From IMG/VR virus record IMGVR_UViG_3300028829_005098, positions 32,001 to 96,000 of that record: a stretch of 64,000 nt of DNA; one strand, 5' to 3'. The DNA comes from a virus. Under the pieces are notes generated by a model. That model saw only the letters and a program-made list of their open reading frames with translations, did no database searches and had not been told where the DNA came from. Positions 3,980 to 28,813 of this stretch are shown here, one piece after another (positions within the stretch are counted from its first letter, which is position 1; each line of letters starts with the position of its first letter). The translations under genes were made by a program, and so were the position numbers.

Positions 3980-5485
3980 TTACAGAGAATCTGTACCTGT
4001 AACGGAGAGTTTTCCGTAGAATTCTGGACGAACCATCTTCTTAGCATAACGAGTCATTACTCCACGACGTGGTGTGAAGTTAACTGGATCGTATACCAAA
4101 GGAGTTTGGATCAACGGAATGTACGGAGCATAAACTGCACCTGTTTCAAGGAAGTTTGTTCCACGGAATCCAACAAGAACGTCACCACTTGTCATGTATG
4201 GGTTCTTGTAGACTTGGAAACGATTGTTCAATGCACCAACCTTGGTAACACCCATTGCGAACTGAGACTGATTTCCGTCTGTGTCAGCTGCATATCCTGG
4301 GATACTTTCAAGAACGGTAGCAACTTGTGGAGAACAAACCAAGAAGTTTGCACCACCACGAAGAGTCAATTGATGAATTGTGTTACTCACCTTTTGAATC
4401 TTTGTACCGAGTTTCTGAAAGAATGTTCCCTGGGTTTCACCACCAGTAAGAGCACCGTTTGCCTCAAATGTTCCACCGTCTGTGTGTGCGTTCACGATAA
4501 GCATATCAAGAATTTCCAAATCAATTTCCATTGAAACGTACTCAGAAAGAAGAGAAGTCAATTCTGCTTCTGCGTCAATACTATGATATGCGTTAAGGTC
4601 TTGTGCCAACTCAGGTGTCCAAACTGCTTTCAACTTACGTGTCTTTGCAACGATTGGTTCACTTTTGAGTTCCAAGTTTACTTCAGGAATACCGATGTCT
4701 TTTTGAAGACCTGTATCAGCTGCGTCAGTAGAGTTACCGAGATTATCTTCAAAGTCACCACGTGTGATGTCGGTTGTTTGTGCATGATAGTCAATATTTG
4801 TATTTCCTGTTGCGTCTGCAGCGACAGAAAGATTCACGGTTACATCACCACTTGCTTCGACATTAATTCCTGTGATGCTACCAACTGAAGATTTCCATGC
4901 TCTCCAACCATCAACATCAGCATTCAATGCTTTACCTAGAGTTGTGGTAGCAGTTGTTGTTGCTTCCCCTTCTCCTGCACTTTCAACTGTCATTGCTACA
5001 GTTGCTTGTTTGTCATTGATTGAGTAACCATGACGTCCTGCTCCGTAAAGACCACCTGTTGCTTGGTCGGTTGAACCGAGTTTTGCGTCTGATGTTCCAC
5101 CGAAAAGACTCTCACTTGATCCTTGAAGTGACTGATTTGTTCCATACTTAAAGTCTAAGTAGAAAATCAATCCGGATGGAAGATTCATTGGTTGAACGGA
5201 AACGAATTCCTTTGATGCGATTTCTGCGAATACACGACGAACGAGAGGAAGTGCTACTCCACTCCATTCTTCTGATCCAGAAGATGTTCCTGTGCGTGAT
5301 GCTTCATCGATCAACTGCTTTGCTTGGTTTTCTAAAAGAATGGACATACCACTCTTTTCTGTGTCTGTTGTAATACCTTCAAGAAGTCCTGTTTTTTCCC
5401 ATTTTGTTACCAAACCACGGGTTTCTGCCATAAGACGTGCTTGAGGATTACTACTTTCTTTTAATAATTTACTGATTTCACTCAT
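3980..5485 (-). CDS. gp23: Major capsid protein (T4 gp23-like)
   Basis: LPLVRR, VSVQPMNLPSGLIF, AKTRKLKAVWTPELAQDLNAYHSIDAEAELT, YAPYIPL, FTPRRGVMTRY; AGAGGA SD. Confidence 0.97.
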   Translation of the reverse strand: MSEISKLLKESSNPQARLMAETRGLVTKWEKTGLLEGITTDTEKSGMSILLENQAKQLIDEASRTGTSSGSEEWSGVALPLVRRVFAEIASKEFVSVQPMNLPSGLIFYLDFKYGTNQSLQGSSESLFGGTSDAKLGSTDQATGGLYGAGRHGYSINDKQATVAMTVESAGEGEATTTATTTLGKALNADVDGWRAWKSSVGSITGINVEASGDVTVNLSVAADATGNTNIDYHAQTTDITRGDFEDNLGNSTDAADTGLQKDIGIPEVNLELKSEPIVAKTRKLKAVWTPELAQDLNAYHSIDAEAELTSLLSEYVSMEIDLEILDMLIVNAHTDGGTFEANGALTGGETQGTFFQKLGTKIQKVSNTIHQLTLRGGANFLVCSPQVATVLESIPGYAADTDGNQSQFAMGVTKVGALNNRFQVYKNPYMTSGDVLVGFRGTNFLETGAVYAPYIPLIQTPLVYDPVNFTPRRGVMTRYAKKMVRPEFYGKLSVTGTDSL

Positions 5486-7039: not shown

Positions 7040-7642
7040 TTAAAGAATTTTCTTATTTCCAAGCATTCTATTGAGTTTCTCTGCCAAAGTAATCTTTGTC
7101 CAATTCTCACGAACCTTGTAAGTTTTTCCGTCAACTTCAAATTCAGTATCACCATCTTCACGTGCTTTTTTAACAGCCGCACCAAATGCGTTACCTTCTT
7201 CTACATCGTCTTCGTCTTCGTCTTCACCAGTAAATTCTTCAGTATCTTCTACATCTTCATTTACTTCTTTCTTTTCTTTTAATTTATATTTCTTTCCACC
7301 TACTTCAAATTCCTTTTCTCCGTTCTCACGGGCTGCTTTTACAGCTGCACCAAAAGCATTTCCTTCGTCTATTTTTTCGTCTTCGTCGGAATCATCTGAT
7401 TTTCCTTGTTTTTTAAGAATTGCTTTCTTAAGTGGTTCAGGAAGTTTTTCTTGTGCCTTTGTAAGACCTTCTTCAACATCTTCCTTATCGTCGGAGTCTT
7501 CGGAATTACCTTGCTTTTTAAGAATTGCCTTCTTAAGTGGTTCAGGAAGTTTTTCTTGTGCCTTTGTAAGACCTTCTAAAAGACCCATTTCGTTTGCTAC
7601 TTCTTCTACTAATTCTTTAAGTTCTTTTCTTGTAATTTTCAT
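7040..7642 (-). CDS. Putative head-internal polyprotein with duplicated peptide modules
   Basis: N-terminal MKITRKELKELVEEV helix; two copies of EGLTKAQEKLPEPLKKAILKKQG and two of EGNAFGAAVKxARExGxxEFEVxGKxYK, separated by acidic spacers. Confidence 0.7.
   Translation of the reverse strand: MKITRKELKELVEEVANEMGLLEGLTKAQEKLPEPLKKAILKKQGNSEDSDDKEDVEEGLTKAQEKLPEPLKKAILKKQGKSDDSDEDEKIDEGNAFGAAVKAARENGEKEFEVGGKKYKLKEKKEVNEDVEDTEEFTGEDEDEDDVEEGNAFGAAVKKAREDGDTEFEVDGKTYKVRENWTKITLAEKLNRMLGNKKIL
7404..7577. repeat. 69-bp direct repeat (7404-7472 and 7509-7577)
   Basis: Two synonymous mismatches; encodes the duplicated GLTKAQEKLPEPLKKAILKKQG module. Confidence 0.9.
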
Positions 7643-8819: not shown

Positions 8820-9449
8820 TTATTCTCCAAATTCTCCAAGAATATCGTGAATGATTGATTCCACCTTACAATATTTTGTACAAACACGTCCATCTGTTAC
8901 TACTTTACTTTCATTTATATTAACCGACTCACTAAGGTTAACAGGTTCCAAGAAAGCACCACGTGTAGATGGATTGCTTACAAAATCAAATGCTACTAAT
9001 TCAAAATCATCATTTACAATTGTTTTACCTTCAGACTCACGAGTTGTTCCCATACCACGTGAACTTATACCAAGTGTAATACCTGATTTAAACAATTCTT
9101 TTAGAATATTTCCAGACGGAGTGCTAAGAACTTCCACTTCACCGACTAGGTTATTGTCTTCCCACCACATCTTAGTTACATTGTGACTTACATTTTGTAG
9201 ATTAACAACACTACTCTCTGGGTGATCTAATTCCCCAAGTGCACGTCTATCATCGATAAGTTCCTTGTATTTTGATGATTCTCTTTCAAGAAGACTGCGT
9301 GAATATACACGACCATTCTGATTCTGTTCAGATGCTTTTTGTAAAATCCCCCGCACCAATAGTCTACCAGAGTTTTTTTCTATACTTTCACTTATTTGTT
9401 CACGTGTGAACTCAAAGGGCATTGTGGATACTATTATATTCTTTGCCAT
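8820..9449 (-). CDS. gp21: Prohead core protease (T4 gp21-like)
   Basis: NQNGRVY, ALGELDHP, GISSRGMG, DFVSNPST catalytic motifs. Confidence 0.95.
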   Translation of the reverse strand: MAKNIIVSTMPFEFTREQISESIEKNSGRLLVRGILQKASEQNQNGRVYSRSLLERESSKYKELIDDRRALGELDHPESSVVNLQNVSHNVTKMWWEDNNLVGEVEVLSTPSGNILKELFKSGITLGISSRGMGTTRESEGKTIVNDDFELVAFDFVSNPSTRGAFLEPVNLSESVNINESKVVTDGRVCTKYCKVESIIHDILGEFGE

Positions 9450-12186: not shown

Positions 12187-14025
12187 TTAATTTTGTTTGT
12201 TATTGGTTGTAGATTCCGTTATATGTTTCTCATCAGAATCTTTGTTTTCTTCACACAATAACTTTGACATTTCATTATCAGTTTTGCGTTTTTTTCCAAG
12301 AAAATCATCTAGTTTCTTTAAATCAGATTCTAATTTTAATGGAGAATCACCCCAATCACGACCATCAACTCTTCTTTCGTCTGCACCTAGTCTATCACGA
12401 CCCATTGGTTTTTCATCAGGATGATCGTACTTTTTATTCGCATTTTTTCGTTTCTTTTCTTCTTTTTTTCTATCTTTGATTCTTTGTTGATGCTCTTCAT
12501 CTGTTTCGTTTTCAAACTTACCAAATCCCCAACTTTCATCATCACCTAGTTCTTCACCATCTTCCTGTGAGGGATTTGCGGGATCATTTCCTTCGTTTTG
12601 AATACTTTCTAATCTAAAGAACTCTTTGGCATCATCTACAAAGTTATTTCGTATTTCATTAACTTCATCTTCAGGTAATCCAAATATTTTATCATAAACC
12701 CATTCTTTAGAGAACATTTTAGCATCTATCATATCACGTGCAGTATTTAATTTTTCGGAAAGAATTCTAACTCGTTCTTCTTCAAATATAGTAGATGGAT
12801 TTGTTAATTGTAAACTAAAATCAACCAACTTAGCATCAGTATAACCTTGTGAATATAAATGAACAACTGCGATCTTGGTTAATTCACTTATCATTATTCT
12901 TTGTAATCTTTCAATAGTTCTAGCAAATCTAATATCTTCGGCTGCGAGTGTTGCTTTACCTGTTATACTTTCATCATATCCAAGAAATGCTTTAGGAACT
13001 TTAAGTGCGGCCATCATTTTGTTTTTAACATACTCAATATCCTCAGTTCCATCGTAAGTCATTGCACCAAGATTTTCAATACGAGTACCACTATCTCCAC
13101 CACGAACAGGCATGAAGAAATCTTCAGTCATGTTTTGTAGATTGAATTTAAGATTATAGTCCCCTGTTTTTTCATCTACAAACGGAACTTTTTTCATTTT
13201 AGTCATAACTTTTTGCATAAAGTTATCAACCTCATTCGGTGGAATATTACCAATATCAATATAAAACATTCTTTTTTCAGGTGCTCGCATGATTCTGTGA
13301 ATAAGCATAGCATCTTCCATCAGTTGAAGTTGTTTCCATGTTCTGCGGGCAGGTTCTATCATACTTTTCCCATATGGAAGATAATTGGTATCACCAAGCA
13401 TTCTAAAGTGAGCAATTTCATAGTTTTCGTATTGTGCTTTAGTAGAACCTTCTTGTTTGAATACAACTAGATTAGGATTTGCAGGATCCATATCTTCTAT
13501 ACGAATCATTTCGTATGTCGAAACGGGTTTTACATTTAATACACCGTACTCTGGTTCAATTTCTAAATGTAAATAGAAATCTCCATATTTACACATATTG
13601 CGAGTCCATCCCCACAAATTAAACTCTACATTTAATATATCGTAAAATAAATTCTCTAGTATTTTTTTTACATTTGAATCTTTACTTTTAATTTGTAGTA
13701 TTTCTCCAAATTCACTTCGTGTAGTAGATTCATCGGCATAAATATCTAATGCACTTGATATAATTGGATCAGTATCCATTATTTCATAGTCACTAAATAA
13801 TTCAAGTCGTGCAGTTTGAAATCCTAAATTATTAAATCCACTTGCATAATCACTAAATAGTGTATGCATTCTGTCGTATTTATCTCTTGTTTTCTTAGAG
13901 TATTGTAAACGATCTGTATCTACTACTTTAGACTTTTTTCCACCAATATTTCTAACAACTACACCTGTTGAAAATAGTTTCTTTAAACCACTAAATAGTT
14001 TTTGTGTTCTGTTTTGTTCTGCCAT
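12187..14025 (-). CDS. gp20: Portal protein (T4 gp20-like)
   Basis: LQLMEDAMLIHRIMRAPEKRMFYIDIGNIP, EDFFMPVRGG, ALKVPKAFL, EDIRFARTIERLQ. Confidence 0.96.
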   Translation of the reverse strand: MAEQNRTQKLFSGLKKLFSTGVVVRNIGGKKSKVVDTDRLQYSKKTRDKYDRMHTLFSDYASGFNNLGFQTARLELFSDYEIMDTDPIISSALDIYADESTTRSEFGEILQIKSKDSNVKKILENLFYDILNVEFNLWGWTRNMCKYGDFYLHLEIEPEYGVLNVKPVSTYEMIRIEDMDPANPNLVVFKQEGSTKAQYENYEIAHFRMLGDTNYLPYGKSMIEPARRTWKQLQLMEDAMLIHRIMRAPEKRMFYIDIGNIPPNEVDNFMQKVMTKMKKVPFVDEKTGDYNLKFNLQNMTEDFFMPVRGGDSGTRIENLGAMTYDGTEDIEYVKNKMMAALKVPKAFLGYDESITGKATLAAEDIRFARTIERLQRIMISELTKIAVVHLYSQGYTDAKLVDFSLQLTNPSTIFEEERVRILSEKLNTARDMIDAKMFSKEWVYDKIFGLPEDEVNEIRNNFVDDAKEFFRLESIQNEGNDPANPSQEDGEELGDDESWGFGKFENETDEEHQQRIKDRKKEEKKRKNANKKYDHPDEKPMGRDRLGADERRVDGRDWGDSPLKLESDLKKLDDFLGKKRKTDNEMSKLLCEENKDSDEKHITESTTNNKQN

Positions 14026-14699: not shown

Positions 14700-16295
14700 C
14701 TATTGTAATAACCAATCTAAACTCTCAGTTCCTCCGTGTGGATTTCTCATTTCATATGGATTACTTGCTAAACCAGAGTTGTGATAGTTTTTTCCTACGT
14801 TCATGTTTGTTGTACTTCCCATATAATCAAATAAACTTTTTTGAGTTTGGACATTTTCATTTCTAAATCTAAGTGCAGTATCACGAACCCACAGAGATAT
14901 ACACAAACTCATTACCAAATCATCATTATATCCTTGCATTGCTTCTGCTCGTTGTCCGTTCCATATAAAAGTAAATAATTCATCCGTTGTTCGTTCTGAT
15001 AAAATGTTAACTTCCTTTTCACGAATATATTGTTCCATTTTACTAATAATAAGTGGACGTGTTTTAATAGATGTTGTGAAACCAGGAACTTGTTTCTTTT
15101 CCATACGATTTAGTTTATTGGTATGTTGTGAAAATTCATCTATATACTGATAATCACGTTGTGTATAATATAAATTGTTGTATCCTTTATCTATAATTTG
15201 TTGCAATACTGCCCAACCTATATTGGCATTTTCCACAACTAATAATGCTCCGTTGAATTCACTTGCCACCGCAACCAAAAGGTTTCCAAAGTCTTTAGTT
15301 TCAATTTCACCTTTAAATTCAGCAACTTGCTTTACATTTTCTACATCAAATACATGAAATGCACTTTTGTCACGTCCATCTCCACGTGCAACATCGGCTG
15401 CTACTACATAATCTTTGTTATGATTGGGATATTCCCATATCCAATATTCTTTATTTGCACCTCGTTTTTCAACAGGTTCTTGTACCATATTTTCTTTATA
15501 CCATTCTAACAAACTTGCATCTACAACAGAACGACCACTGCTAATAAAGTCACAATCACATTCTTGCGCCGCATCTTTTTCACCAAGAACTTTTGTTTGT
15601 AAATCTCTCCACTTTTGATCTCTATCAGGATGCAATGACCAATGCAAATTGATTGGATTAAAGTCATTTGATCCGTCCATAGTACCAACCCAAGTTTTGT
15701 GGAAAAAATTACCGATACCATTTGGAGTAGATAATAGAATAGAACGACCACCCGTTGTAATTGTAGATTGCGATGCAGTCCATATGTCTTCCATGTTTGT
15801 AATAAACGCACACTCGTCCACGATAAGTAAACTCAATGATGACGAACGAGAAGCATCTACACTACTTGAAGCCGCACGAATATTACTTCCGTTTTTAAAA
15901 CGCATACTAAGTTTGTTTTTTTCTGTACACTCATTTCTCAACCAACTTGGTAAATGTTCGGACATATGGGTTACTTTAGTAACAATATTTTTTGCAGTTT
16001 CTTGGTTAATAGCAATACACAAAATAGATTTATCTGTAAAAAAGGTCATTAACCACAATGCATAACCAGATACAAGTGTAGATATACCCATTTGTCTTGC
16101 TTTTAATACAATATTAAATTGTTCGTCACGAAAACTTTCAAGGGTTTTTGATTGAAAATCGTATAATGCAAATGGAATAGTACCCAGTGTAGGGTGTTGA
16201 ATTTTGCAGTATTTTTTCATAAAGTATGAAGGTGACTTCAAACACTCAGCATACTCTTCTTTGATTATTTCTCTTAATGGTTTATTAGTTGCCAT
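14700..16295 (-). CDS. terL: Terminase large subunit (T4 gp17-like)
   Basis: LKARQMGIST Walker A, LLIVDECAFI Walker B, STPNG, nuclease ADVARGDG and NDDLVMS. Confidence 0.96.
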   Translation of the reverse strand: MATNKPLREIIKEEYAECLKSPSYFMKKYCKIQHPTLGTIPFALYDFQSKTLESFRDEQFNIVLKARQMGISTLVSGYALWLMTFFTDKSILCIAINQETAKNIVTKVTHMSEHLPSWLRNECTEKNKLSMRFKNGSNIRAASSSVDASRSSSLSLLIVDECAFITNMEDIWTASQSTITTGGRSILLSTPNGIGNFFHKTWVGTMDGSNDFNPINLHWSLHPDRDQKWRDLQTKVLGEKDAAQECDCDFISSGRSVVDASLLEWYKENMVQEPVEKRGANKEYWIWEYPNHNKDYVVAADVARGDGRDKSAFHVFDVENVKQVAEFKGEIETKDFGNLLVAVASEFNGALLVVENANIGWAVLQQIIDKGYNNLYYTQRDYQYIDEFSQHTNKLNRMEKKQVPGFTTSIKTRPLIISKMEQYIREKEVNILSERTTDELFTFIWNGQRAEAMQGYNDDLVMSLCISLWVRDTALRFRNENVQTQKSLFDYMGSTTNMNVGKNYHNSGLASNPYEMRNPHGGTESLDWLLQ

Positions 16296-16300
16296 CGAGA

Positions 16301-16308
16301 ATAAATAT
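16301..16308 (-). promoter_or_regulatory. Candidate late promoter ATATTTAT, 5 nt before terL ATG
   Basis: ATATTTAT-TCTCG-ATG, no SD. Confidence 0.6.
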
Positions 16309-16354
16309 ATATGTATTTAATTTTCTATAATATAAAAAAGTTTAGAGGTATCGT

Positions 16355-16981
16355 CTAAAATTTTATATTTTCATACTCTAGTAGATCAGTTTCTACTTCA
16401 CGTAATCTTTTTTCAAGTTCTTCTAAATCATTCTCTAGGTCATTTATGACTTTAGATTTATCAGGAAGAGTCCATTGTTCTAATGTACCATTTTCATTTA
16501 AGAACTCAGGATCATCGTTTATATACTTTTTAGATTCGACAAGTTTTGTACGTGTTTCAAATAAAAAACTTCGTTCGTTTTCAAGCATAGTCTTTTTTTC
16601 ATATGCTTCGTATTTACCTTCATCTTTTAATTTTTGTTCATATTCATAAACACAATCAAAACACATACCTTTTTTTGCAAGCATTTTTTTATCAAGATAT
16701 TTGCTTGGGTCACAGGTACAAACCTCTTTAGGACAATTTGGTGCTTCTCGTAGACTTTTACGAACTTTATCAAAAAGAGTTTCAGTTCTTACTTTTGTAT
16801 TATCTCCGATTTGCTTCCACTCTTTACCATCGGAGTCTGTCCAAATTTCACCGATTTCTTTTTTTTCGTATTTATTGTTTTCTCCTTCGTATCCATGTAC
16901 TTTAGGAATTTCTTCACCTTTAAATAATTTACGAGAACGTTTAATAACGTACTTCAGATCGTCTTTATCCATTTTTGCCAT
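16355..16981 (-). CDS. Hypothetical protein with Cys clusters and C-terminal coiled coil
   Basis: GEIWTDSDGKEWKQ, CPKEVCTC, CFDC. Confidence 0.75.
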   Translation of the reverse strand: MAKMDKDDLKYVIKRSRKLFKGEEIPKVHGYEGENNKYEKKEIGEIWTDSDGKEWKQIGDNTKVRTETLFDKVRKSLREAPNCPKEVCTCDPSKYLDKKMLAKKGMCFDCVYEYEQKLKDEGKYEAYEKKTMLENERSFLFETRTKLVESKKYINDDPEFLNENGTLEQWTLPDKSKVINDLENDLEELEKRLREVETDLLEYENIKF

Positions 16982-16987
16982 GAGTTT

Positions 16988-17016
16988 ATTAAAACACTAT
17001 TATACTATTTTGTCAA
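16988..17016 (-). promoter_or_regulatory. Sigma70-like promoter TTGACA-N17-TTTAAT, 6 nt before ATG
   Basis: -35 at 17011-17016, -10 at 16988-16993; an alternative TATAAT lies at 16999-17004. Confidence 0.5.
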
Positions 17017-17412
17017 AAGGAAATTAAACTTTTTTATGGATTCTTTTAAAAAACAATTTATCAAAAAGTTATGATATTGTTTTCTGTATTTTTCTTTTTG
17101 TTTTTCTGTAATATCTCTTTTTAAAAATGATAGTTCGTTTGAGCATATTTCTTCATCGTAAATATCATATTCTAATATTGAAAATATTTGTTTCAACGAC
17201 AGATGAGTTTCGTAGTAGTTATATGAATTTCGTATTATTAACTGAATATACTTTGAACGTTCTCGTATTTCTTCTATAAATTCTCTGTCAAGATAGGGAA
17301 TTTTTTGTGGAAGAGTTGCACGATGTGATGTATTAAATAATACAATAACTTCATTTAATACGTCATAAACTTCTTGTGCAGTTAAATAAAGATTTCCATT
17401 TAATTTAATCAT
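17005..17412 (-). CDS. Hypothetical protein
   Basis: 135-aa ORF overlapping the upstream stop. Confidence 0.6.
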   Translation of the reverse strand: MIKLNGNLYLTAQEVYDVLNEVIVLFNTSHRATLPQKIPYLDREFIEEIRERSKYIQLIIRNSYNYYETHLSLKQIFSILEYDIYDEEICSNELSFLKRDITEKQKEKYRKQYHNFLINCFLKESIKKFNFLLTK

Positions 17413-18649
17413 TATTGTTTTTAAACTTTTTTCTATCGTAGACTTTTTTACTTTTCATAGGTCTACTACTAGGAAGTGTAGGTTTGCGAATCTTTTTATA
17501 TGCATCCATTTTTGATATAAGTTTATTTCTTTTAGATTCCGACAATTTTTTAATTTTGTGAACAAGCATTTTTATATACTCCTTTTTGCTTCCTCTTCCT
17601 TTGAAGTATGAACTTTTATCACTTAACATTTTTGCAATATCAAGCATTCCTTGTAAGTCTTTTAAATTATCTTCTTTTTCTTTATCTTCCATTTTTAAAT
17701 CCTCGTCAATAGGTCCGTCTATTTTGGTAAATTCTACATAATAATTTCCATCACTATCTTGTATTATTTTACCACCAACTTCTTTTGAATGCTTTTTAGC
17801 ATCTTCTTTATTTTTAAATTTCAAAGGTTCTATATTACCATTTTTATTTGTACCAGATAAATTTGCTTCACCACCACCTACATTATGTTTACTTATATTA
17901 AACTCTTCGGTAAAAAATCTATTTTTATTTAGTGGTGATAAAGCCGCACTCGTTCCAATAGTAACTAAACGATTATATCTTATAAGTTGATCTATAATAG
18001 AAACAATGTTATTCATAAAAGGTTTTTTTTCAAGTTCAGGTATTTCTTTTTCTATATTACGAATTGTTTGTTGTAAATGACCTTTACCGAATTTTTCGTC
18101 TTTTATCATTTTTAGTATACCCGGATACTTTCGCTTTATTAGTTCGTATGTTTTCTTGACATTAAATTTTGTTTCACGTGAGTTAAACTTATCATGTACC
18201 ACTTTTGCAAGAGTTGTAGTTATCCCCACCACACCACCAACTGCAGCCACAATAGACGCAATCGTTAATGGATCAACCGATTCATTTATATTTACTTCTT
18301 TATCCGAACTGTTTCTTATTTTTGCTACCCTTGCTTTTTCCTTCTTCTTAACTGCGGGTAGCATTCGTTTTGCTAATTTAGCAACTAAACCTTTTTTATT
18401 TGCAAGTTTCTTATCGATCAATTCTTTCTGACCTACACTTAAATCTTTATAGGACTTTCCACCTGCCATCTTTTTTACTATTAGTGTTTTGGCAGCCTTC
18501 TCAGCAGATGCTTTTAACTTTGCAGGACTTTTCATTCTTTTGGCAAATAACTTTTTCTTGGCTGCTCGTTTTTTTGCAGTTCTTCTTGCGGCCTGAGAAA
18601 GTTTGCGTCTTGCGATTCTTGATAATTTTCTTTCTGCTTGGTCTTCCAT
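17405..18649 (-). CDS. Modular basic protein, probably head-internal
   Basis: Very Lys/Arg/Ala-rich N-terminal module, then INE, a hydrophobic segment, and further modules after FTE, IDE and LSE. Confidence 0.7.
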   Translation of the reverse strand: MEDQAERKLSRIARRKLSQAARRTAKKRAAKKKLFAKRMKSPAKLKASAEKAAKTLIVKKMAGGKSYKDLSVGQKELIDKKLANKKGLVAKLAKRMLPAVKKKEKARVAKIRNSSDKEVNINESVDPLTIASIVAAVGGVVGITTTLAKVVHDKFNSRETKFNVKKTYELIKRKYPGILKMIKDEKFGKGHLQQTIRNIEKEIPELEKKPFMNNIVSIIDQLIRYNRLVTIGTSAALSPLNKNRFFTEEFNISKHNVGGGEANLSGTNKNGNIEPLKFKNKEDAKKHSKEVGGKIIQDSDGNYYVEFTKIDGPIDEDLKMEDKEKEDNLKDLQGMLDIAKMLSDKSSYFKGRGSKKEYIKMLVHKIKKLSESKRNKLISKMDAYKKIRKPTLPSSRPMKSKKVYDRKKFKNNND

Positions 18650-18650
18650 A

Positions 18651-21158
18651 TCAGAATCTCATTATACCCATGATTTGGTTAATGGGAGCAAATGTTCCTG
18701 TAAGTTTATATGTTCCACCTTTGTATTGAAATACAACACCTTCTGTTGGTGCGATTGACTTGCTTCCTCCGATAGCATTTAAACGAGCAAGATTTTTATT
18801 TAGTTTCTCCATGTCTTTTTTAAACTTATCAGGAGATTCCACCGAACTTAGTTTCTTGCCTTCAAGTGTTTTAACATGAGCATCAAGTGCTTTTGCTATA
18901 TCATCACTTCCACCAGCCGCAACGAATCCTTTTACGTTCTGAAGAACTTCCGCACCTAATTTCAAAAAGATAAATTGAAATGGCCACATATTTTCTTCAA
19001 ATTGTTTTACTAAATCTTCTTTATCAAATTTATTAACCCATGCTTTTAATTTAGGTTGTTTTTCTAAATCCATACGAATTGTGGTAATTTTATTTGATTT
19101 GTCATTATATGCCCAACGACCTATCAATGCTTCAAATACTTTTGGTGGAAACGTTTCTTTTGATTTATTTTGTTGTTTATTTAATAAATCTCTCCACCAA
19201 GCATCGTGATACTTCATCACTTTATCGTTGTCTTTTAATTTAAATTTCTTTTTTAGTTTATCAAGCATTGCAGAATATTTTGAAAACGAATCACCAAAAC
19301 TTTTACTTTTAGGAAGTTCCACCACAATCGGTGCATTTAATGAATATCTTTTTTGAACATCTGCATTTACTTGCTTTAACATACCTTTAAGCATTCTAGC
19401 AGAGTCTTTTAATTCTGCGGTAATATCGTTTCCATCGGAATCTTCACTTACTGCTTTTCCTGCGGAATTGTATGCCTGTGTTCCGTGAAATACCAACATA
19501 TCTACATTCTGAGGAATAACATTTTGAGTTGCGGGTGTCATTACCTCTATATTCATAAAACGTTCACCTTCTTTGAATACCTTACTTCGTTGTTTTTCAC
19601 TCAACTTGGATATAGCAGATTCTAAATCAGTAACTGCACTCACGAACGCATCACGAATGTTTTCGGGACGATCAGCAAATATACTTTCAAATTCTTTTAC
19701 ATTAGGAGCGGCTGCACCTGCGTTTTTTAAATGCCCTTGATTTCTTGCAGCCACTAATTGTCCATCTTTCCAAGAAAACATTAAATTTTGACCATCTAGT
19801 TTTTCAGTTACTTCTTTTTCAACATTTAATTCACCAGACAACGACCTGCGAATCATTTCTTTTAAATCAGCAAATGTTAAATCCCGATCATCGAAAGGAT
19901 GACTCATATGACCAGCCGCACCTCCTTCTGTTAATAATACTTCGTTGATAGCATGACCTTCTACACCTTTATCTATTTCTTCATCATCTTCTGCTTTGTC
20001 GGTATCTATGGTATTTGTTCCTGATCTTAGATCTTCATCTCCTTGTTCATCTTTCTTACGAATTGATTTTTCAGAACCAAGAAAATCTACAAGTTTATAT
20101 CCTGCAGTTTCTGCAACACCATTTATGAAATTGACCCACTGAGTGTGTGCTGATTGTGATTTCTCAAAATCTATTTGATTCATTGGAGTATTTGCATCTA
20201 TATCTCCTGCAGGATAAAAACTTACCGCAGGAACTGGTCCTGCATATTTTCCCCATTCACGATAATCTGCATTACGACCTAATCCATGTTTTCCTACTAC
20301 ATAGTCAAGTAAATCATAACCTAATTGTTGTGCTCGTTTACTTGTATTTCCTTCGTATGATTGTCCAGGGTAAAACATACTTGGTCCATCGTCAACCATT
20401 GTTTTTCCAAGAGCAGAAATTGAACTTATTTCATTAAGAAGTGTCGGTATACTATTCACGAACTTCTTAAATTTTGGATATTCTTTTAAAAATCCTTCAA
20501 ATATTTCTTCATTTTCAAATAAAGTTGCAAACTTTTTTGTTAGATAGTCATAGATCTTTTCATCATACCAACCAAATAATTCTTTGAATGCTTGTTTTCT
20601 TTGTTCATCGGAATACTTTGGACTTCCAAGCAAGTCACGAATTCTTGTTCCACTTACTTCCCCACCGAGAACTTTAATGCTTACATGAGGAGCAACGATA
20701 AAGTATCCATGTTCTGCATATGGTTTTAATTTACCTTTATTTTTAACATATGACTGATAATAAGCAGGTGAACCATCTGCTTTCGTGGTTTTTAATCTAC
20801 CTGCATCTTTTTCTCCAAATATATAAATAACCGCAGTTGTGTTTGGATCATATTTTTTAAGTATCTCTTCACATACATATGGGTTTTTTACTTGAACTAC
20901 ATTTTTTACTTTGTGCTTTGTCCATATCATTTTCTTTTCTTTAAAGTTCAATGGACTTTTAGAAGAGTCGGTTTTATTGCTAGTTGCTACATATGCTTTA
21001 TCAAATTTTCCGTCCAACCATTTATAGGTTTTATAGTGATGCACACCCGCGGGTTGAAATCTACCTGGATAAATTCCAATTATTTTTCGTATTTTACCTT
21101 CGTTTAGTAGATTGTCTACAAGAAACTCAGATAATTTATCTGTGAAATCATCATTCAT
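18651..21158 (-). CDS. Fusion: HIGH-family (cytidylyltransferase-like) nucleotidyltransferase + DDGP module + RNA-ligase-like domain
   Basis: IIGIYPGRFQPAGVHH and SGTRIR for the NTase; EKLDG (motif I), NIEVM, LVFHG, EGVVF (IV) and YKLTG (V) for the ATP-dependent ligase superfamily. Confidence 0.8.
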   Translation of the reverse strand: MNDDFTDKLSEFLVDNLLNEGKIRKIIGIYPGRFQPAGVHHYKTYKWLDGKFDKAYVATSNKTDSSKSPLNFKEKKMIWTKHKVKNVVQVKNPYVCEEILKKYDPNTTAVIYIFGEKDAGRLKTTKADGSPAYYQSYVKNKGKLKPYAEHGYFIVAPHVSIKVLGGEVSGTRIRDLLGSPKYSDEQRKQAFKELFGWYDEKIYDYLTKKFATLFENEEIFEGFLKEYPKFKKFVNSIPTLLNEISSISALGKTMVDDGPSMFYPGQSYEGNTSKRAQQLGYDLLDYVVGKHGLGRNADYREWGKYAGPVPAVSFYPAGDIDANTPMNQIDFEKSQSAHTQWVNFINGVAETAGYKLVDFLGSEKSIRKKDEQGDEDLRSGTNTIDTDKAEDDEEIDKGVEGHAINEVLLTEGGAAGHMSHPFDDRDLTFADLKEMIRRSLSGELNVEKEVTEKLDGQNLMFSWKDGQLVAARNQGHLKNAGAAAPNVKEFESIFADRPENIRDAFVSAVTDLESAISKLSEKQRSKVFKEGERFMNIEVMTPATQNVIPQNVDMLVFHGTQAYNSAGKAVSEDSDGNDITAELKDSARMLKGMLKQVNADVQKRYSLNAPIVVELPKSKSFGDSFSKYSAMLDKLKKKFKLKDNDKVMKYHDAWWRDLLNKQQNKSKETFPPKVFEALIGRWAYNDKSNKITTIRMDLEKQPKLKAWVNKFDKEDLVKQFEENMWPFQFIFLKLGAEVLQNVKGFVAAGGSDDIAKALDAHVKTLEGKKLSSVESPDKFKKDMEKLNKNLARLNAIGGSKSIAPTEGVVFQYKGGTYKLTGTFAPINQIMGIMRF

Positions 21159-21694
21159 TTAGATTTCAAAACTTCAGATAAAATTGTTCTTATTTGTACT
21201 CGTAGCTTTTCTTCGTAAACTTTTCTTTCTACAAACTTATTGAATTCACCCTTTGACATATCAGATACATAATCTGCCATATCCTCAAATCCTTTTCGTT
21301 CTAACCAAGAAATAACTTTATCTTTTGCTTTTAATACACTTGAATGTAATCCTGACATAAAACTTATTGCTTTTTTATATTCTGGACTCGTTAACTTTAT
21401 TTCATTTACTTCTTTCATTTTTGTTTCCTCATATAGTGACATATAAAAATCTTCGTCAGAACTTGCGGATTGAAAATCACGATATGCTTGTTCTGCTTCT
21501 TTTCCCACGAGTATTACTTTGCCCCTTGGGAAGTATAATATTTCATCTCCTTTTTTAAATTTCACTCCTCCTTTTCTTAGTCTTCTTTGTACAGGTAATC
21601 TTTGTTCACCAGAAACTCCGTCATATTTTGACTTCATCCAAACTGGATCATCTTTATATCTTGCTTCGTTCATATCAGTCTTCAAAGTATTCAA
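21155..21694 (-). CDS. Modular hypothetical protein
   Basis: MNE followed by module YKDDPVWMKSKY...KKGDEILYFP; C-terminal EEKLRVQIRTILSEVL helix. Confidence 0.7.
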   Translation of the reverse strand: MNTLKTDMNEARYKDDPVWMKSKYDGVSGEQRLPVQRRLRKGGVKFKKGDEILYFPRGKVILVGKEAEQAYRDFQSASSDEDFYMSLYEETKMKEVNEIKLTSPEYKKAISFMSGLHSSVLKAKDKVISWLERKGFEDMADYVSDMSKGEFNKFVERKVYEEKLRVQIRTILSEVLKSK

Positions 21695-22028
21695 TTACTT
21701 TTCCTGTTTTAATATTATTTTTGCAGGCTTTTCGTTTATCACGATGTAGATGTGGTGCTTTATCAAGATACTCTGTGGTACAATGAAATATATAACCATC
21801 CACCACAGGACCTTCTGTTGTTTCTCCTTCACTATATACTCCGATAAATTTAAAGTCATCTTTTTCTTTTTTAACAAATTTGCTTGCAAGAGACTTTGCC
21901 CAATTTTCATTTCCTGCTTTTTTTGAAGAATAACTATATCTAGAATGATTTGGTGCTAGTTCAAGTCTCCAAGTTTCTCCAAGTTTTTCTTCTTGAATTA
22001 ATTCATCTAATATTTTTTCAAAATTCAT
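21675..22028 (-). CDS. Hypothetical protein
   Basis: Coupled ORF with MNFEKILDELIQEEKLGE leader. Confidence 0.65.
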   Translation of the reverse strand: MNFEKILDELIQEEKLGETWRLELAPNHSRYSYSSKKAGNENWAKSLASKFVKKEKDDFKFIGVYSEGETTEGPVVDGYIFHCTTEYLDKAPHLHRDKRKACKNNIKTGKVIEYFED

Positions 22029-23068
22029 TTTTCACCCTTAAACTTTAATGAACGAATTTGGTGAAAGTATTTTACGATCTGATTCCTTGATAAATTCAGA
22101 CTTTCTACCAATCTCGATAATACCGCAAGATTTCTTCGTTCGTTTAATTTAAATTTTCTAATTACATAAATAGACCTACTCAAATGTCTTTCTAAATCCA
22201 TAGGAAGAACGACATCTTCCATAGAAACTATATCTAATTCCTCATTCACACGATTTCGTTTATCACCACTCTTAGTCATTTTATCATGTGCCATCATCAT
22301 TTGTATCCACTTTTTACCAATTGGATTTCGTATGGGTTTTGCAACAAATCGTGCAGTTGCTTTTAAAACGTGTGGAACTAAATCTAGTCTTCCTGGTTTC
22401 TTTTTACTACGAGTATCTTCAGAGTTATCTACAATAACAAAGTTTTTTCCAAATGAACCTTGAAACTTACCAAGATTTTTTTGTACATCGGTCCAAATAT
22501 CTTTTACTATTTTTCTTGGAAGTTTTCTTTTACGCATTGCGTTTCTTTGTTGTGCAACTTCAAGTGTTGTGTTAACAAACACCATATAACAATCGTATCC
22601 AAGTTTTTCTAGTTCTTTCTTTTGCTTAGATATTTTGTTATAGTTATCACCAGTTCCATCAACAATAACACCAAGACGATTATTTTTAAACATTTCAAAT
22701 TGTCTTAACATAATTTTCTTTGCACGGGAACGAATACTATTTGGATCACCACTTGTCACTTTGCTAAATGTTTCATCGTCCATTTTGGATAAATTTAAAT
22801 CGTATCCTGCTTTCTTTAGAAGTATTTCAAACGCAGGATCACTATTAACTATCTTTAACCCACTTGGAGACAAATTAGTTGCTTCGGGTGGAAAATCAAA
22901 TATTGTATCAACGGTAGCAGATTTACCAGATCCAGGACCTCCCGCTAAAAATACTGCTTTTAGAATACCAGGATCATACACACCCTCTACAAGTGTAAAA
23001 TATCCTTTACGCAATCCTGCTTTAATCAGGGTTTCTTTGACTTCTTGGTTTTTTTCGGAATCTTCCAT
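22025..23068 (-). CDS. P-loop kinase (polynucleotide kinase / Zeta-toxin-like)
   Basis: FLAGGPGSGKS Walker A, VNSD, VIVDGTG, RNAMR lid motif. Confidence 0.85.
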   Translation of the reverse strand: MEDSEKNQEVKETLIKAGLRKGYFTLVEGVYDPGILKAVFLAGGPGSGKSATVDTIFDFPPEATNLSPSGLKIVNSDPAFEILLKKAGYDLNLSKMDDETFSKVTSGDPNSIRSRAKKIMLRQFEMFKNNRLGVIVDGTGDNYNKISKQKKELEKLGYDCYMVFVNTTLEVAQQRNAMRKRKLPRKIVKDIWTDVQKNLGKFQGSFGKNFVIVDNSEDTRSKKKPGRLDLVPHVLKATARFVAKPIRNPIGKKWIQMMMAHDKMTKSGDKRNRVNEELDIVSMEDVVLPMDLERHLSRSIYVIRKFKLNERRNLAVLSRLVESLNLSRNQIVKYFHQIRSLKFKGEK

Positions 23069-23088
23069 AAATACAATTCAGGTACATA

Positions 23089-23096
23089 ATAAATAT
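23089..23096 (-). promoter_or_regulatory. Candidate late promoter ATATTTAT heading the kinase-ligase operon
   Basis: Recurrent motif, 20 nt upstream of the kinase ATG. Confidence 0.55.
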
Positions 23097-23111
23097 ATAT
23101 CTAAATATGTT

Positions 23112-25712
23112 TTATACTCCGTATTTTATCTTACTAAAAGAACCTTCTTTTTGAATTTCTATAATCTCGTCCACCATATCTCTCATTACATCCAAATGAC
23201 TGATGACCATTATGAACTCAAACTGCCCCTTTAAATAGGTAAACAGATTAAATACACTACTTATGTTGTCTCCATCCAAAGAACCCCACCCTTCGTCAAT
23301 AACAAGGAAATTAGAACGTGGCAAACTACTTACATTAATAAGTGCTACTCGCATTGCGATACTGCTAATGAAACGTTCCATGCCACTACACATTTCAAGT
23401 GGCCAATGACGATCTTCATATGTAATCTTTGAGTAAATATGCTTTCCGTCCATCTCAAGTTGCATACCAAAGTCAACAATTTGAGAAAGAATATTATTAA
23501 CTTCACTTTCAATGCTTGGAATTGTTTTGGAAATAAGTTCATATGAAATACCATCTCGTTTTACTGCATCAAGATATAGTTCGTATCCTCGTTTCTTTCT
23601 TTCATACCCCTTTGCCTCTTCAATAGATTCTAAAACATCTTTATGTTCTTTTTCTACAATTTTAACTTCACCAAACAAACCTTGTAATTTCATTGTTTCG
23701 TTTGATACTATTTCGTCTACTTTTTTTAATTTTTCTTTTACTAAATCTGCATCTACTTGTAGTTTTTTATTGAATAGAATAATATCTTTACACTCATAAT
23801 ATTCTTCAATGCTTTTATCGTTTAATAGTATATCTTTTTCAAGTGACTCAAGTATACTTGAAAGTGCAAGAATTTTAGAATCTACGTCACTTATTTCATA
23901 CGACATTTGATTTAGTTTGGTTCTATCTTCAATTAGTTTTTTATGTTGTTCTTCTATATCACCAAATTTATCTAATGTTTTAGTAAGTTCAGTTTTAGTC
24001 TTAACTAGTTCATCGGCATCTGCTTTATCTTTATCAAGTTCTTTTTTAGTAATAGCCGCACTATCAATCAAATTCTTGGAATTCTTTACACAAAACTCAC
24101 ACTTAGGATCATATTCATGACTATCATAGTGTTTAAGTTTATCTAATTTAGCATTAACAGATGTTCTTAAAACTGCTAAGTCTTTATCTACTGACATTAG
24201 TTCTTCTTTTATTTTTAATGACTCGATAAAATTATCTTCTATATGTTTTCTTTTGCCCAACGACTTGGTTAGTTCAGACTTTTCGTTTGCTAATTGTTTT
24301 TTTCTGTCGGATTCTTTTTTTCTATTATCGTTTGCTATTTCAAGTCTATCTCTTAAATTTCTTTTATTATACTCAAGTTTATCTATATCTACATTTTCTT
24401 CATCAAACGAACAATTTTTAAATTGAGAATTAATTTCAGCAAGACTATTATTTAATATTTTTTGTTCAGCAAGTGCTATATCAGTTTTTTCGTTTTGTTC
24501 GTTATATCTTAAATTAACATCGTTAAGTTTTTCTTGTACATTCAATAAAAGTTCATCGAAGTTTTCACGATTAAATCTTTTAAGTAAAGCATTTATTTCT
24601 TTTATATCTTCAGATGCAGTTGAATGCAAATTATCAAATACATCAATACCCATAAATTGTGCAAGTAAATCTTTACGTTCACTTTGACTTTTATCTATAA
24701 AGATTGCATTGTTGTTTTGCAAACTTAATGCAGTTAAAACAAAATCTTCATACGAACCCACATGATCACGAATATTTGCATTTGTACCTGTTCGTTGTTC
24801 TCCGTTCAAAGATACTTTTTGTCCAGTAGAATCGTTTTTCCAAAAATCTACTACCACAGTAACATCTCCATTCTTTTTAGTAGAAGCATTTCTTTCAATA
24901 AAGTAATCTACACCAGAAATCTCAAAGTTTAACTTACAATAAAAACTATCAGTCTGTGTATTTAGTACATGGGCAGCCTTGAATGCTCTGTCACACTTAT
25001 CATATAAACAAAAACTTAATGCACTCATTACACTACTTTTACCACTTGCATTTGAGGCAAATAAACCCATAACACTTTTCATATTTGAAAAGTCTACAAT
25101 GTTTGAGTCTCCGTAACTAAACATATTGCCGAATTCAAACTTTTTAGGTTTCCATATGCAATTTCTAAGAATTTCCTTTACAACAAGTTTATCATTTATT
25201 TCTTTGTTGATATCGAGTGCAGTTTTGATTTGTTCATCATCTACTACGAAATTTCTTCTAAGATAATCTTCTATTAAATCATTTTGAACATGAACCTTTG
25301 TAATATCACCAAAGTCAAATTTATTATCACGATCAAACTTTTTTGCTTCAGAAATAGCATCACACCTTGTTACATTTAAATCAGATATACTAGTTTTCTT
25401 ACGAATCTCCGCAAGAATTTCTTTAGTTTCAGTTGCAGTTGTGTTATATACTTTTACACGAAGTCTTGCCTTTTTTGGCAATTGACTTAAATCACTTACA
25501 CATTTACCATCACGAACCTCTACCGTATAATAACCATAATCGTTATGCACTTCGTGGTGTGTGTGTTTTCTATTTTTAATATCCCAAAAAACATAACCAT
25601 GACCCTTTGGTTTTTCTCCATGATTTTGTTGAATCATGCTACCCGAGTATACCACAACAGGTTTCTCACCGTTGTGTCTTTTTATTTTTACATATGTTTT
25701 TGGTTCATCCAT
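23112..25712 (-). CDS. sbcC: Rad50/SbcC-like ATPase (gp46-like) carrying the C-terminal part of the Mre11/SbcD nuclease
   Basis: N-terminal YSGSMIQQNHGE..HGY (SbcD C-part); ASNASGKSS Walker A, CEFC zinc hook, CSGME signature, VIDEGWGSLD Walker B, ISH. Confidence 0.92.
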   Translation of the reverse strand: MDEPKTYVKIKRHNGEKPVVVYSGSMIQQNHGEKPKGHGYVFWDIKNRKHTHHEVHNDYGYYTVEVRDGKCVSDLSQLPKKARLRVKVYNTTATETKEILAEIRKKTSISDLNVTRCDAISEAKKFDRDNKFDFGDITKVHVQNDLIEDYLRRNFVVDDEQIKTALDINKEINDKLVVKEILRNCIWKPKKFEFGNMFSYGDSNIVDFSNMKSVMGLFASNASGKSSVMSALSFCLYDKCDRAFKAAHVLNTQTDSFYCKLNFEISGVDYFIERNASTKKNGDVTVVVDFWKNDSTGQKVSLNGEQRTGTNANIRDHVGSYEDFVLTALSLQNNNAIFIDKSQSERKDLLAQFMGIDVFDNLHSTASEDIKEINALLKRFNRENFDELLLNVQEKLNDVNLRYNEQNEKTDIALAEQKILNNSLAEINSQFKNCSFDEENVDIDKLEYNKRNLRDRLEIANDNRKKESDRKKQLANEKSELTKSLGKRKHIEDNFIESLKIKEELMSVDKDLAVLRTSVNAKLDKLKHYDSHEYDPKCEFCVKNSKNLIDSAAITKKELDKDKADADELVKTKTELTKTLDKFGDIEEQHKKLIEDRTKLNQMSYEISDVDSKILALSSILESLEKDILLNDKSIEEYYECKDIILFNKKLQVDADLVKEKLKKVDEIVSNETMKLQGLFGEVKIVEKEHKDVLESIEEAKGYERKKRGYELYLDAVKRDGISYELISKTIPSIESEVNNILSQIVDFGMQLEMDGKHIYSKITYEDRHWPLEMCSGMERFISSIAMRVALINVSSLPRSNFLVIDEGWGSLDGDNISSVFNLFTYLKGQFEFIMVISHLDVMRDMVDEIIEIQKEGSFSKIKYGV

Positions 25713-28777: not shown

Positions 28778-28782
28778 ACCAA

Positions 28783-28811
28783 ATGATATGTCAAAAATTT
28801 TTAAAGGTCAA
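28783..28811 (-). promoter_or_regulatory. Sigma70-like promoter TTGACC-N17-TATCAT, 5 nt before ATG
   Basis: -35 at 28806-28811, -10 at 28783-28788; heads the resolvase-primase-Mre11/Rad50 operon. Confidence 0.65.
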
Positions 28812-28813
28812 TG

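Follow-up and report, generated by a model that had tools for sequence, protein, structure and literature searches.

What function could bring together a P-loop kinase and a fused adenylyltransferase-ligase upstream of the terminase and head genes of a marine T4-like phage? The question is raised by a 64,000-nucleotide stretch of viral DNA, positions 32,001 to 96,000 of the IMG/VR record IMGVR_UViG_3300028829_005098 (hereafter the window), which forms part of a 115-kb viral record of ~58% completeness and carries, at positions 18,651 to 23,096, an operon of four open reading frames (ORFs), P0001 to P0004. An initial annotation had read P0001 and P0004 as an enzyme kit whose modules each begin right after a prohead-protease-type site and would be packaged, matured in the prohead, and injected. 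In the reading that we favor, and whose chances we consider evenly balanced, P0001 and P0004 form a conserved RNA-repair enzyme set that plausibly reaches the host inside the capsid. Such a set would heal and seal broken RNA ends, above all those of tRNAs cut by host defense nucleases: 5'-OH ends, once phosphorylated by the kinase, would be sealed by the ligase via a lysyl-AMP at K453, and the adenylyltransferase would supply NAD+ or an adenylylated cofactor, or pre-activate the phosphate end. The proteins would be loaded into the prohead, trimmed by a gp21-type protease, and injected with the DNA.

A kinase and an adenylyltransferase-ligase

Sequence comparison supports P0001 as a P-loop kinase of the PNK/PSTK/Zeta type, in keeping with the PNK/Zeta-like kinase proposed initially. 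The Pfam family Zeta_toxin matches above its cut-off (E 1.4e-11; 44.6 bits versus 22.3), AAA_33 scores E 1e-5 (26.3 bits, with a cut-off of 27), and phrog_12810 matches with E 1.5e-37; the Walker A motif is GPGSGKS (aa 44-50), the Asp D77 is invariant, and the Arg residues R175, R179, and R181 are present. The solved structures nearest to the family profile in the PDB are PSTK (E 0.008) and the kinase of CthPnkp (E 0.025), both weak matches. Homologues that consist of the kinase only are ~250 aa long, and kinase homologues occur in pelagiphage HTVC008M, Methylophilales phage Melnitz, and the jumbo phages Atu_ph07 and RsoM2USA.

AlphaFold modeling of the P0004 modules followed by Foldseek gave a NadM-like adenylyltransferase, a disordered DDGP linker of low confidence, and a C-terminal domain resembling Trl1 and Rnl1. 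The model supports a NadM/NMNAT fold for the first of these, the nucleotidyltransferase (NTase) domain (pLDDT, the predicted local distance difference test, of 85-91), and so bears out its assignment to the HIGH family: Foldseek ranks NadM first (2qjo/2r5w, E 3.4e-4), then NadD and PPAT, which score nearly as well, and the domain profile matches the archaeal NMNAT MJ0541 in the PDB (1f9a, E 1.1e-5). Nicotinamide mononucleotide may be its substrate. When 28 full-length homologues with identities as low as 38% are aligned, the residues G32, R33, F34, P36, H41, G170, T171, and R174 are invariant. At the position of the (H/T)xGH motif, P0004 reads GRFQPAGVHH, with the first His changed to Gly and an extra His one before the last, which is the invariant H41; the AGVHH noted initially is thus correct, and relatives have either HxGH or GxHH there. 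The second ATP-binding motif, of the ISxTxxR type, is S169-G-T-R-I-R174. A sequence search of P0004 against the PDB gave no match, and a search of the ESM Atlas with the DDGP module gave no usable match.

Because Foldseek with the full-length model returned the NTase domain only, the C-terminal domain was folded alone (AlphaFold2, 66 sequences), which gave a pLDDT of 94.2 and a predicted template modeling score (pTM) of 0.90. The model supports a KxDG ligase fold that is closest to RNA ligases, a likeness that is structural only. Its best Foldseek matches are the ligase domain of Trl1 and T4 Rnl1, and in a VIA structural search all of the top 10 matches are ligases (Z 7.4-8.7 over 160-209 residues): NgrRnl (Rnl5) at 8.7, REL1 at 8.0, Rnl2 at 7.9, Trl1 at 7.7, the African swine fever virus (ASFV) ligase at 7.6, and Rnl1 at 7.5, modest values that allow an assignment only at the level of the fold. 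The motifs on which the ligase-like call had been based, EK453LDG, EGVVF (aa 806-810), and YK818LTG, are present. K453, D455, and G456 are invariant in the 28 full-length and 66 domain sequences, and E538, F557-H558, E806-G807, and K818 are conserved in the order of motifs III, IIIa, IV, and V, with E538, E806-G807, and K818 invariant or nearly so. The domain opens with a conserved GGAxGHxxHPFD motif and contains an all-helical insertion of ~190 aa ahead of motif IV. The C-terminal model has no OB-fold (oligonucleotide/oligosaccharide-binding) domain, since motif V is followed by one helix only (aa 823-834) and the extra region is all-helical; this absence, together with the top structural neighbors (Rnl5, REL1, Rnl2, Trl1, and Rnl1), argues for an RNA rather than a DNA ligase. 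The domain matches no RNA ligase family among the Pfam, PHROG, and NCBIfam models. Its helical region is an internal insertion and not the C-terminal tRNA-binding domain of Rnl1/Trl1-type ligases, and aa 429-493 weakly match the Pfam adenylation domain of NAD-dependent ligases (E 0.004).

A large virus-only family

By exhaustive HMMER search, which recovered 3,273 clusters at 50% identity, the pair of NTase (NT) and ligase (LIG) domains is a large virus-only family without a Pfam or PHROG name, reported here as new. Among ~150 representatives, each less than 50% identical to any other, the architectures are NT-LIG (65), NT-DDGP-LIG (44), LIG-NT (11), LIG alone (9), and P-loop-NT-(DDGP)-LIG (4), so that the DDGP module is optional; it also lies between two kinase domains in the homologue P0328. 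That NT and LIG are joined in either order, and that a P-loop kinase is fused to them in frame in 4 of the 150, argues that the NTase and ligase work together and that the kinase belongs with them. Other fused partners in relatives are a CCA-adding PolyA_pol with its RNA-binding domain, HD, a KTI12-like kinase, DUF5661, and an ADP-ribosyltransferase; one protein of 1,930 aa (P0244) combines the NTase, an AAA_33/KTI12 kinase, HD, PolyA_pol with its RNA-binding domain, and the ligase.

Gene order is conserved as well. In long related viral contigs, down to 36-45% identity, the order of kinase (KIN), NT-LIG, TerL, portal, two ORFs, and S77 protease is kept, with S77 present wherever the contig reaches that far downstream; some of the contigs lack the kinase. 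Microcystis phage Mel-JY01 likewise encodes a prohead protease and has a homologue upstream of TerL. A scan of 185,579 GTDB species genomes found no clear cellular homologue and 9 loci only, all in metagenome-assembled genomes (MAGs): 6 match well (36-42% identity) and have phage genes or synteny in common, and 3 are weak (22-28%), with a partial NT-LIG match only. The MAGs concerned in L083-L088 are named Pelagibacter, Pelagibacteraceae, Methanobacteriota, Bacteroidales, and Neomarinimicrobiota; their contigs carry homologues of the genes of this phage, the longer ones (L083, L086, and L087) show the same KIN/NT-LIG/TerL/portal order, and they are probably mis-binned phage contigs. On the MAG contig NHHP01000001.1, a true NAD-dependent LigA lies ~1 kb beyond the phage stretch, ~2.4 kb past the S77 gene.

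RNA repair, NAD+ salvage, or DNA sealing

The fusions to a kinase, HD, and a CCA-adding enzyme point to tRNA repair, since these domains are the vocabulary of tRNA end repair. RNA repair, and that of tRNA in particular, is accordingly the best-supported function, one that we judge to have even chances of being right.

The same domains could instead serve NAD+ salvage of the NadR type against NAD+-depleting defenses, with P0001 as a nicotinamide-riboside kinase, the NTase as an NMNAT, and the ligase-like domain using NAD+ or having another purpose. The NTase is indeed closest to NadM and archaeal NMNAT, with their GRFQP...H and SGTxxR motifs, NadR couples the same two enzyme classes, phages carry NadM/NadR together with NadV (PMC9503650), and the weak match of aa 429-493 to an NAD-dependent adenylation domain fits such a role. 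We nevertheless consider it quite unlikely: it is the ligase, not the kinase, with which the NTase is universally paired, the fused partners (CCA-adding enzyme, HD, KTI12-like kinase) are tRNA-related, and the nearest solved relatives of the kinase are PSTK and CthPnkp. Nor was a gene for Nampt (PF04095), Tpt1 (PF01885), or a CCA-adding enzyme (PF01743) found in the record, which at 58% completeness is uninformative, although the missing Nampt leans the same way.

A role in DNA metabolism, in which the ligase domain would be the DNA ligase of the phage and the kinase a DNA 5'-kinase, the two sealing nicks in replicated DNA just before packaging, would suit the position of the gene between recombination genes (RuvC, SbcCD) and terminase. 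Searches of the record, of three partial relatives, and of the complete genome of Mel-JY01 found no DNA ligase (PF01068 or PF01653), and DNA ligases score only slightly lower by fold, as the ASFV ligase illustrates. This role is nonetheless improbable: the OB domain, present in all known DNA ligases, is absent, the top fold matches are RNA ligases, the family is fused to CCA-adding and HD domains, and the contig of one relative has a true LigA nearby. Many marine T4-like phages also lack a DNA ligase, which counts against this role.

Protease-type sites at the module borders

T4 packages gpAlt and internal proteins from which gp21 removes short N-terminal peptides (PMC9958956), and S77 proteases act on capsid-targeting sequences of 10-20 residues, cleaving after Glu (PMC5694885). 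The window encodes a Peptidase_S77 of the gp21 type, the proposed processing enzyme, and a major capsid protein that begins with a gp23-like propeptide, whose site IDE61/A (here and below, the slash marks the presumed point of cleavage) lies ~24 residues ahead of the conserved core. We take this N-terminus to resemble the propeptide of T4 gp23; the closest relatives of the capsid protein are in Flavobacterium phage immuto, Microcystis phage Mel-JY01, and Rhodothermus phage RM378, and T4-like phages are more distant. The S77 protease and the propeptide site indicate that the phage has a T4-type head maturation system.

All of the sites named in the initial annotation are present: P0001 reads ...YFTLVE/GVYDPGILKAVFLAGGPGSGKS, the Glu being E28, and P0004 reads LLNE20/GKIRKIIGIYPGRFQPAGVHH, then LLNE243/ISSISALGKTMVDDGP, then LLTE411/GGAAGHMSHPFDD. 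A single [LIV]xE means little, because P0004 has 17 such triplets. Only four are conserved among its 28 homologues, however, and three of them, E20, E243, and E411, are the three domain borders; the fourth, VTE452, adjoins the catalytic KxDG. All three border residues lie in low-pLDDT segments of the AlphaFold model. The 20-aa leader ends in an exposed segment (pLDDT <50 at aa 15-20), where [LI]xE is found at the E20 column in 25 of the 28 homologues and the rest of the leader varies. Among the ~150 representatives, [LIVM]xE is enriched 6- to 80-fold ahead of the modules: it occurs 7-14 residues upstream of DDGP in 91% (background 12%), directly before the ligase motif in 79% (background 1%), and 9-18 residues upstream of GRFQP of the NTase in 79%, or 61% when the NTase is internal (background 14%). 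N-terminal leaders and inter-domain [LI]xE sites of this kind fit the phage's own gp21-type protease, which makes it plausible that the proteins are loaded into the prohead, trimmed, and injected.

Related sites are seen in other members of the family. In P0075 and P0080-P0082 (1,152-1,156 aa, 78% identity), an insertion of ~317 aa and unknown family stands exactly between leader and NTase, with L-C-E before and I-F-E after it, so that another module has apparently been slotted between two [LI]xE sites. In the homologue P0316, the kinase is fused at its C-terminus to a P0002-like domain with LAE/G at the junction, and P0328 (kinase, DDGP module, second kinase) has IIE/S and LTE/G at its junctions.

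The kinase site is of a different kind. [LIVM]xE/G is found in 113 of 113 kinase homologues behind leaders of 3-37 aa, with E28 and G29 invariant, and since the Glu is retained even behind leaders of three or four residues ("MNE" or "MINE"), the kinase fold itself probably includes it. The proposal that each module starts right after a protease-type site thus stands for the presence of all the sites and the conservation of E20, E243, and E411, but not in full for the kinase or for E411, which is often Met in relatives. Likewise, [LIVM]xE is conserved at the domain borders of homologues, as the proposal required, in 79-91% of the representatives (61% where the NTase is internal), but its Glu is replaced by Met at the ligase border in 25 of 81 related loci and absent from the linkers of the LIG-NT clade. 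From these patterns, delivery in the capsid, with the protein cut at the NTase and DDGP borders, appears plausible, if somewhat short of an even prospect; the case for the kinase is weak, and cleavage at the ligase border is unlikely to be obligatory. We also considered whether the residue at the ligase border co-varies with the type of protease and rejected this, as the Met variants fall in the same clade and their long contigs carry an S77 homologue.

Genomic context

Every gene of the region is encoded on the minus strand (Table 1). In the direction of transcription, the order is primase, RuvC-like resolvase, SbcD/SbcC, P0001, P0002, P0003, P0004, three ORFs, TerL, portal, Peptidase_S77, and major capsid protein, which places the operon between Rad50 and terminase, as first described. 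The candidate late motif that was said to head it is also real: TATATTTAT is found 12 times on the gene strand of the window, each time within intergenic DNA or at its edge, and such DNA accounts for 3.5% of the window. One copy precedes the kinase start by 21 nt, the next precedes TerL, and a gene-strand scan of the window found none between these two. The best explanation of this arrangement is that P0001-P0004 are transcribed as one unit, from a promoter-like motif shared with TerL and other genes, and TATATTTAT may represent a class of promoters for structural genes; expression of the operon would then presumably be late. The T4 late promoter sequence itself, TATAAATA, shows no enrichment (16 copies, 11.7 expected). 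A TTGAC-type sequence, instead of TATATTTAT, precedes the RuvC/primase block.

Table 1. Features of the window discussed in the text (positions within the 64,000-nucleotide window).
Feature	Position	Strand	Notes
TATATTTAT, all gene-strand copies	59756, 59115, 56237, 56231, 33600, 33594, 29448, 23089, 16301, 12156, 12150, 6933	gene strand	
3,386-aa ORF	37525-47685	-	
TTGAC-type sequence	28778-28813		
SbcC/Rad50	23112-25712		
TATATTTAT copy upstream of kinase start	23089..23097	-	
P0001	22025..23068	-	347 aa; leader aa 1-28, P-loop kinase aa 29-255, clade-specific C-terminal extension aa 256-347
L26-V27-E28 of P0001	22985..22993	-	immediately ahead of the conserved GVYDPG...GPGSGKS block
P0002	21675..22028	-	117 aa; no family match
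P0003	21155..21694	-	179 aa; no family match; kept in close relatives between P0002 and P0004
P0004	18651..21158	-	835 aa; leader, NTase, DDGP linker module, ligase-like domain
P0004 leader	21099..21158	-	20 aa, helical, N-terminal; ends in L18-N19-E20; pLDDT <60 at aa 1-20, <50 at aa 15-20
P0004 HIGH-superfamily adenylyltransferase domain	20514..21098	-	aa 21-215; NadM/archaeal-NMNAT-like; GRFQPAGVHH, SGTRIR
P0004 linker with DDGP module	19926..20513	-	aa 216-411; low confidence, pLDDT mostly 27-59; bounded by L241-N242-E243 and L409-T410-E411
P0004 ligase-like covalent nucleotidyltransferase domain	18654..19925	-	aa 412-835; GGAAGHMSHPFDD, K453-L-D-G, E538, F557-H558, E806-G807, K818
Rest of transcription unit	16355..18649	-	
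414-aa very basic protein	17405-18649		
135-aa ORF	17005-17412		
208-aa Cys-rich ORF	16355-16981		
TATATTTAT copy ahead of TerL	16301-16309		
TerL	14700-16295	-	
Portal	12187-14025	-	
Prohead protease, Peptidase_S77 (T4 gp21 type)	8820..9449	-	PF03420, E 1.9e-27, 96.5 bits (cut-off 27)
200-aa ORF of head module	7040-7642	-	
Major capsid protein	3980..5485	-	phrog_138, E 4.3e-75; gp23-like N-terminal propeptide, I59-D60-E61/A

The remaining ORFs of the transcription unit are less informative. P0002, P0003, and the 414-, 135-, and 208-aa ORFs gave no significant family match, P0002 and P0003 having been searched against the PDB as well; phrog_23027, of unknown function, matches the 414-aa protein. 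This protein, encoded directly after P0004, has an extremely K/R/A-rich N-terminus and resembles a basic, DNA-associated internal head protein. In many of the distant relatives, though not in all, the 208-aa ORF keeps its position between NT-LIG and TerL. In the head module, the 200-aa ORF contains repeated peptide units, each starting after xxE-G (LLE/G, VEE/G), and resembles the T4 core proteins that are degraded to peptides. Elsewhere in the window, a single ORF of 3,386 aa lies amid genes of the tail/baseplate region.

A possibly related gene set in cultured phages

In pelagiphage HTVC008M, a kinase 44% identical to P0001 is encoded between a DUF6267 protein and a HIGH NTase (L096, 104818-109011). 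In DUF6267, the ligase-like motifs HxxHxxDD, KWDG, and EG...K occur co-linearly, a leader that closes with [LI]xE is seen in some members, and the family may be an unrecognized ligase family. Homology of the P0004 ligase domain to DUF6267 was not demonstrated, since the hhalign comparisons reach E 0.14 and 0.098 and the motifs are co-linear only, and PF19782 (DUF6267) has no match in the record. DUF6267 is found in 469 phage records and the NTase, annotated as "cytidylyltransferase", in 563; both are widespread in T4-like cyanophages and are adjacent in the records examined (including the cyanophage loci L097 and L099), the NTase being annotated in one case as "NadR-like".

Two virion proteomes list such an NTase. 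That of S-SZBM1 includes the "cytidylyltransferase" S-SZBM1_140, with its neighbors _139 and _136, and does not list DUF6267 itself (PMC9146016); the gene for S-SZBM1_140 adjoins a DUF6267 gene, and the protein starts MRFRQFIIE/A. The proteome of S-CREM2 lists a HIGH-type "cytidylyltransferase", ORF154 (PMC10665884). These data are experimental but give no more than indirect support to the packaging of P0001 and P0004.

Packaged or cytoplasmic

Several observations weigh against a packaged RNA-repair set. On the side of function, RNA repair leaves the role of the adenylyltransferase unexplained, and no recognizable 3'-end healing enzyme (3'-phosphatase or cyclic phosphodiesterase, CPDase) was found by family searches in the operon, as the initial annotation had remarked of the 3'-phosphatase. 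On the side of packaging, the Glu before the ligase is Met (KELLLM/GGA) in those 25 of the 81 loci, an S77 homologue being encoded on their long contigs as well, and it is Cys or Ala in other representatives, which rules out obligatory cleavage at this border; the linkers of the LIG-NT clade are of low complexity, P/E/T/K-rich, and lack the motif; and the kinase Glu is kept even behind leaders of 3-4 residues, as a fold element would be. The possibly related set of cyanophages and HTVC008M sits in the replication module. The cyanophage NTase, moreover, belongs to a different subfamily and is not demonstrably orthologous to that of P0004 (BLASTP E ~0.8), and the S-SZBM1 proteome also lists TerL and TerS, which makes carry-over possible.

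The same enzymes might act only in the cytoplasm of the infected cell, with nothing packaged and [LI]xE serving a structural role, as a linker feature or as the end of a strand or helix that caps a domain. The invariance of E28-G29 in all 113 kinases, the position of E411 against the nearly invariant GGAxGH, with Met, Cys, or Ala there in phages of the same clade, the motif-free LIG-NT linkers, and the place of the related sets among replication genes would all be expected if this were so. However, the NTase and DDGP sites stand at variable spacing (9-18 and 7-14 aa) in unconserved, low-pLDDT sequence, which is typically the pattern of a short linear motif and not of a fold element, and synteny with the head module, a shared promoter-like motif, and a HIGH-type NTase in two cyanophage virion proteomes also speak against enzymes of the cytoplasm only. 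We regard purely cytoplasmic action as less likely than not, and prefer the packaged RNA-repair set.

Comparison with known systems and implications

The set is closest in content to T4 Pnk and Rnl1 and to fungal and plant Trl1 (ligase, kinase, and CPDase), with which it shares a P-loop kinase, an RNA-ligase fold with KxDG, a helical accessory region, and the lack of an OB domain. It differs from them in that the helical region of P0004 is an insertion before motif IV and not a C-terminal domain, the operon has no recognizable 3'-phosphatase or CPDase, and the ligase nearly always comes with a HIGH adenylyltransferase on the same chain. P0004 also has the additional N-terminal GGAxGHxxHPFD, and its sequence similarity to the Rnl families is undetectable. 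With NadM and archaeal NMNAT, it shares the fold and the GRFQPxxxxH and SGTxxR motifs, and with NadR (NMNAT and ribosylnicotinamide kinase, RNK) a P-loop kinase partner; in contrast to NadM and NadR, P0004 has GxHH, as does part of its family, other members keeping HxGH, no Nudix domain, and a ligase partner, and the kinase is of the Zeta/PNK type, not shown to be an RNK. Relative to the DUF6267 and "cytidylyltransferase" pair, adjacency (with the kinase family in HTVC008M) and co-linear motifs are held in common, whereas there the genes are separate and in a replication module, the profile-profile E of ~0.1 is not significant, and the NTases are of different subfamilies.

As cargo, the set would resemble the T4 internal proteins processed by gp21 (IPI-III and gpAlt) and Aravind's "polyvalent" head-packaged effectors: it has a short N-terminal leader closing with [LI]xE, an S77 protease in the genome, and several enzyme domains per chain, encoded beside head genes, with an ADP-ribosyltransferase in one relative (PMC9958956, PMC9503650). 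It differs from them in that RNA-repair or NAD enzymes are not among the known cargo and that no MuF or zincin domain was seen. Head-packaged phage effectors include ADP-ribosyltransferases, anti-restriction proteins, and RNA polymerases. We know of no packaged RNA-repair or NAD enzyme, and the reviews consulted name none.

A bolder version of the packaged set, which we think unlikely, is that a marine T4-like clade loads a polyprotein-style tRNA-repair/NAD kit, cut at [LI]xE into separate enzymes by the prohead protease and injected with the DNA, so that anticodon-nuclease or NAD-depleting defenses would be neutralized before phage gene expression; the ligase might then be the first NAD+-dependent RNA ligase, fed by the fused NAD+ synthetase. 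If packaging is confirmed, a repair kit made in advance and carried in the virion would be a new kind of counter-defense in the first minute of infection. The ligase family, which is abundant and virus-only, whose motif set is unusual, and whose HIGH-adenylyltransferase partner is obligate, predicts new RNA-ligation chemistry or a new means of cofactor supply. It further hints at what the pair of DUF6267 and "cytidylyltransferase", widespread in cyanophages and currently filed as an auxiliary metabolic gene, might do.

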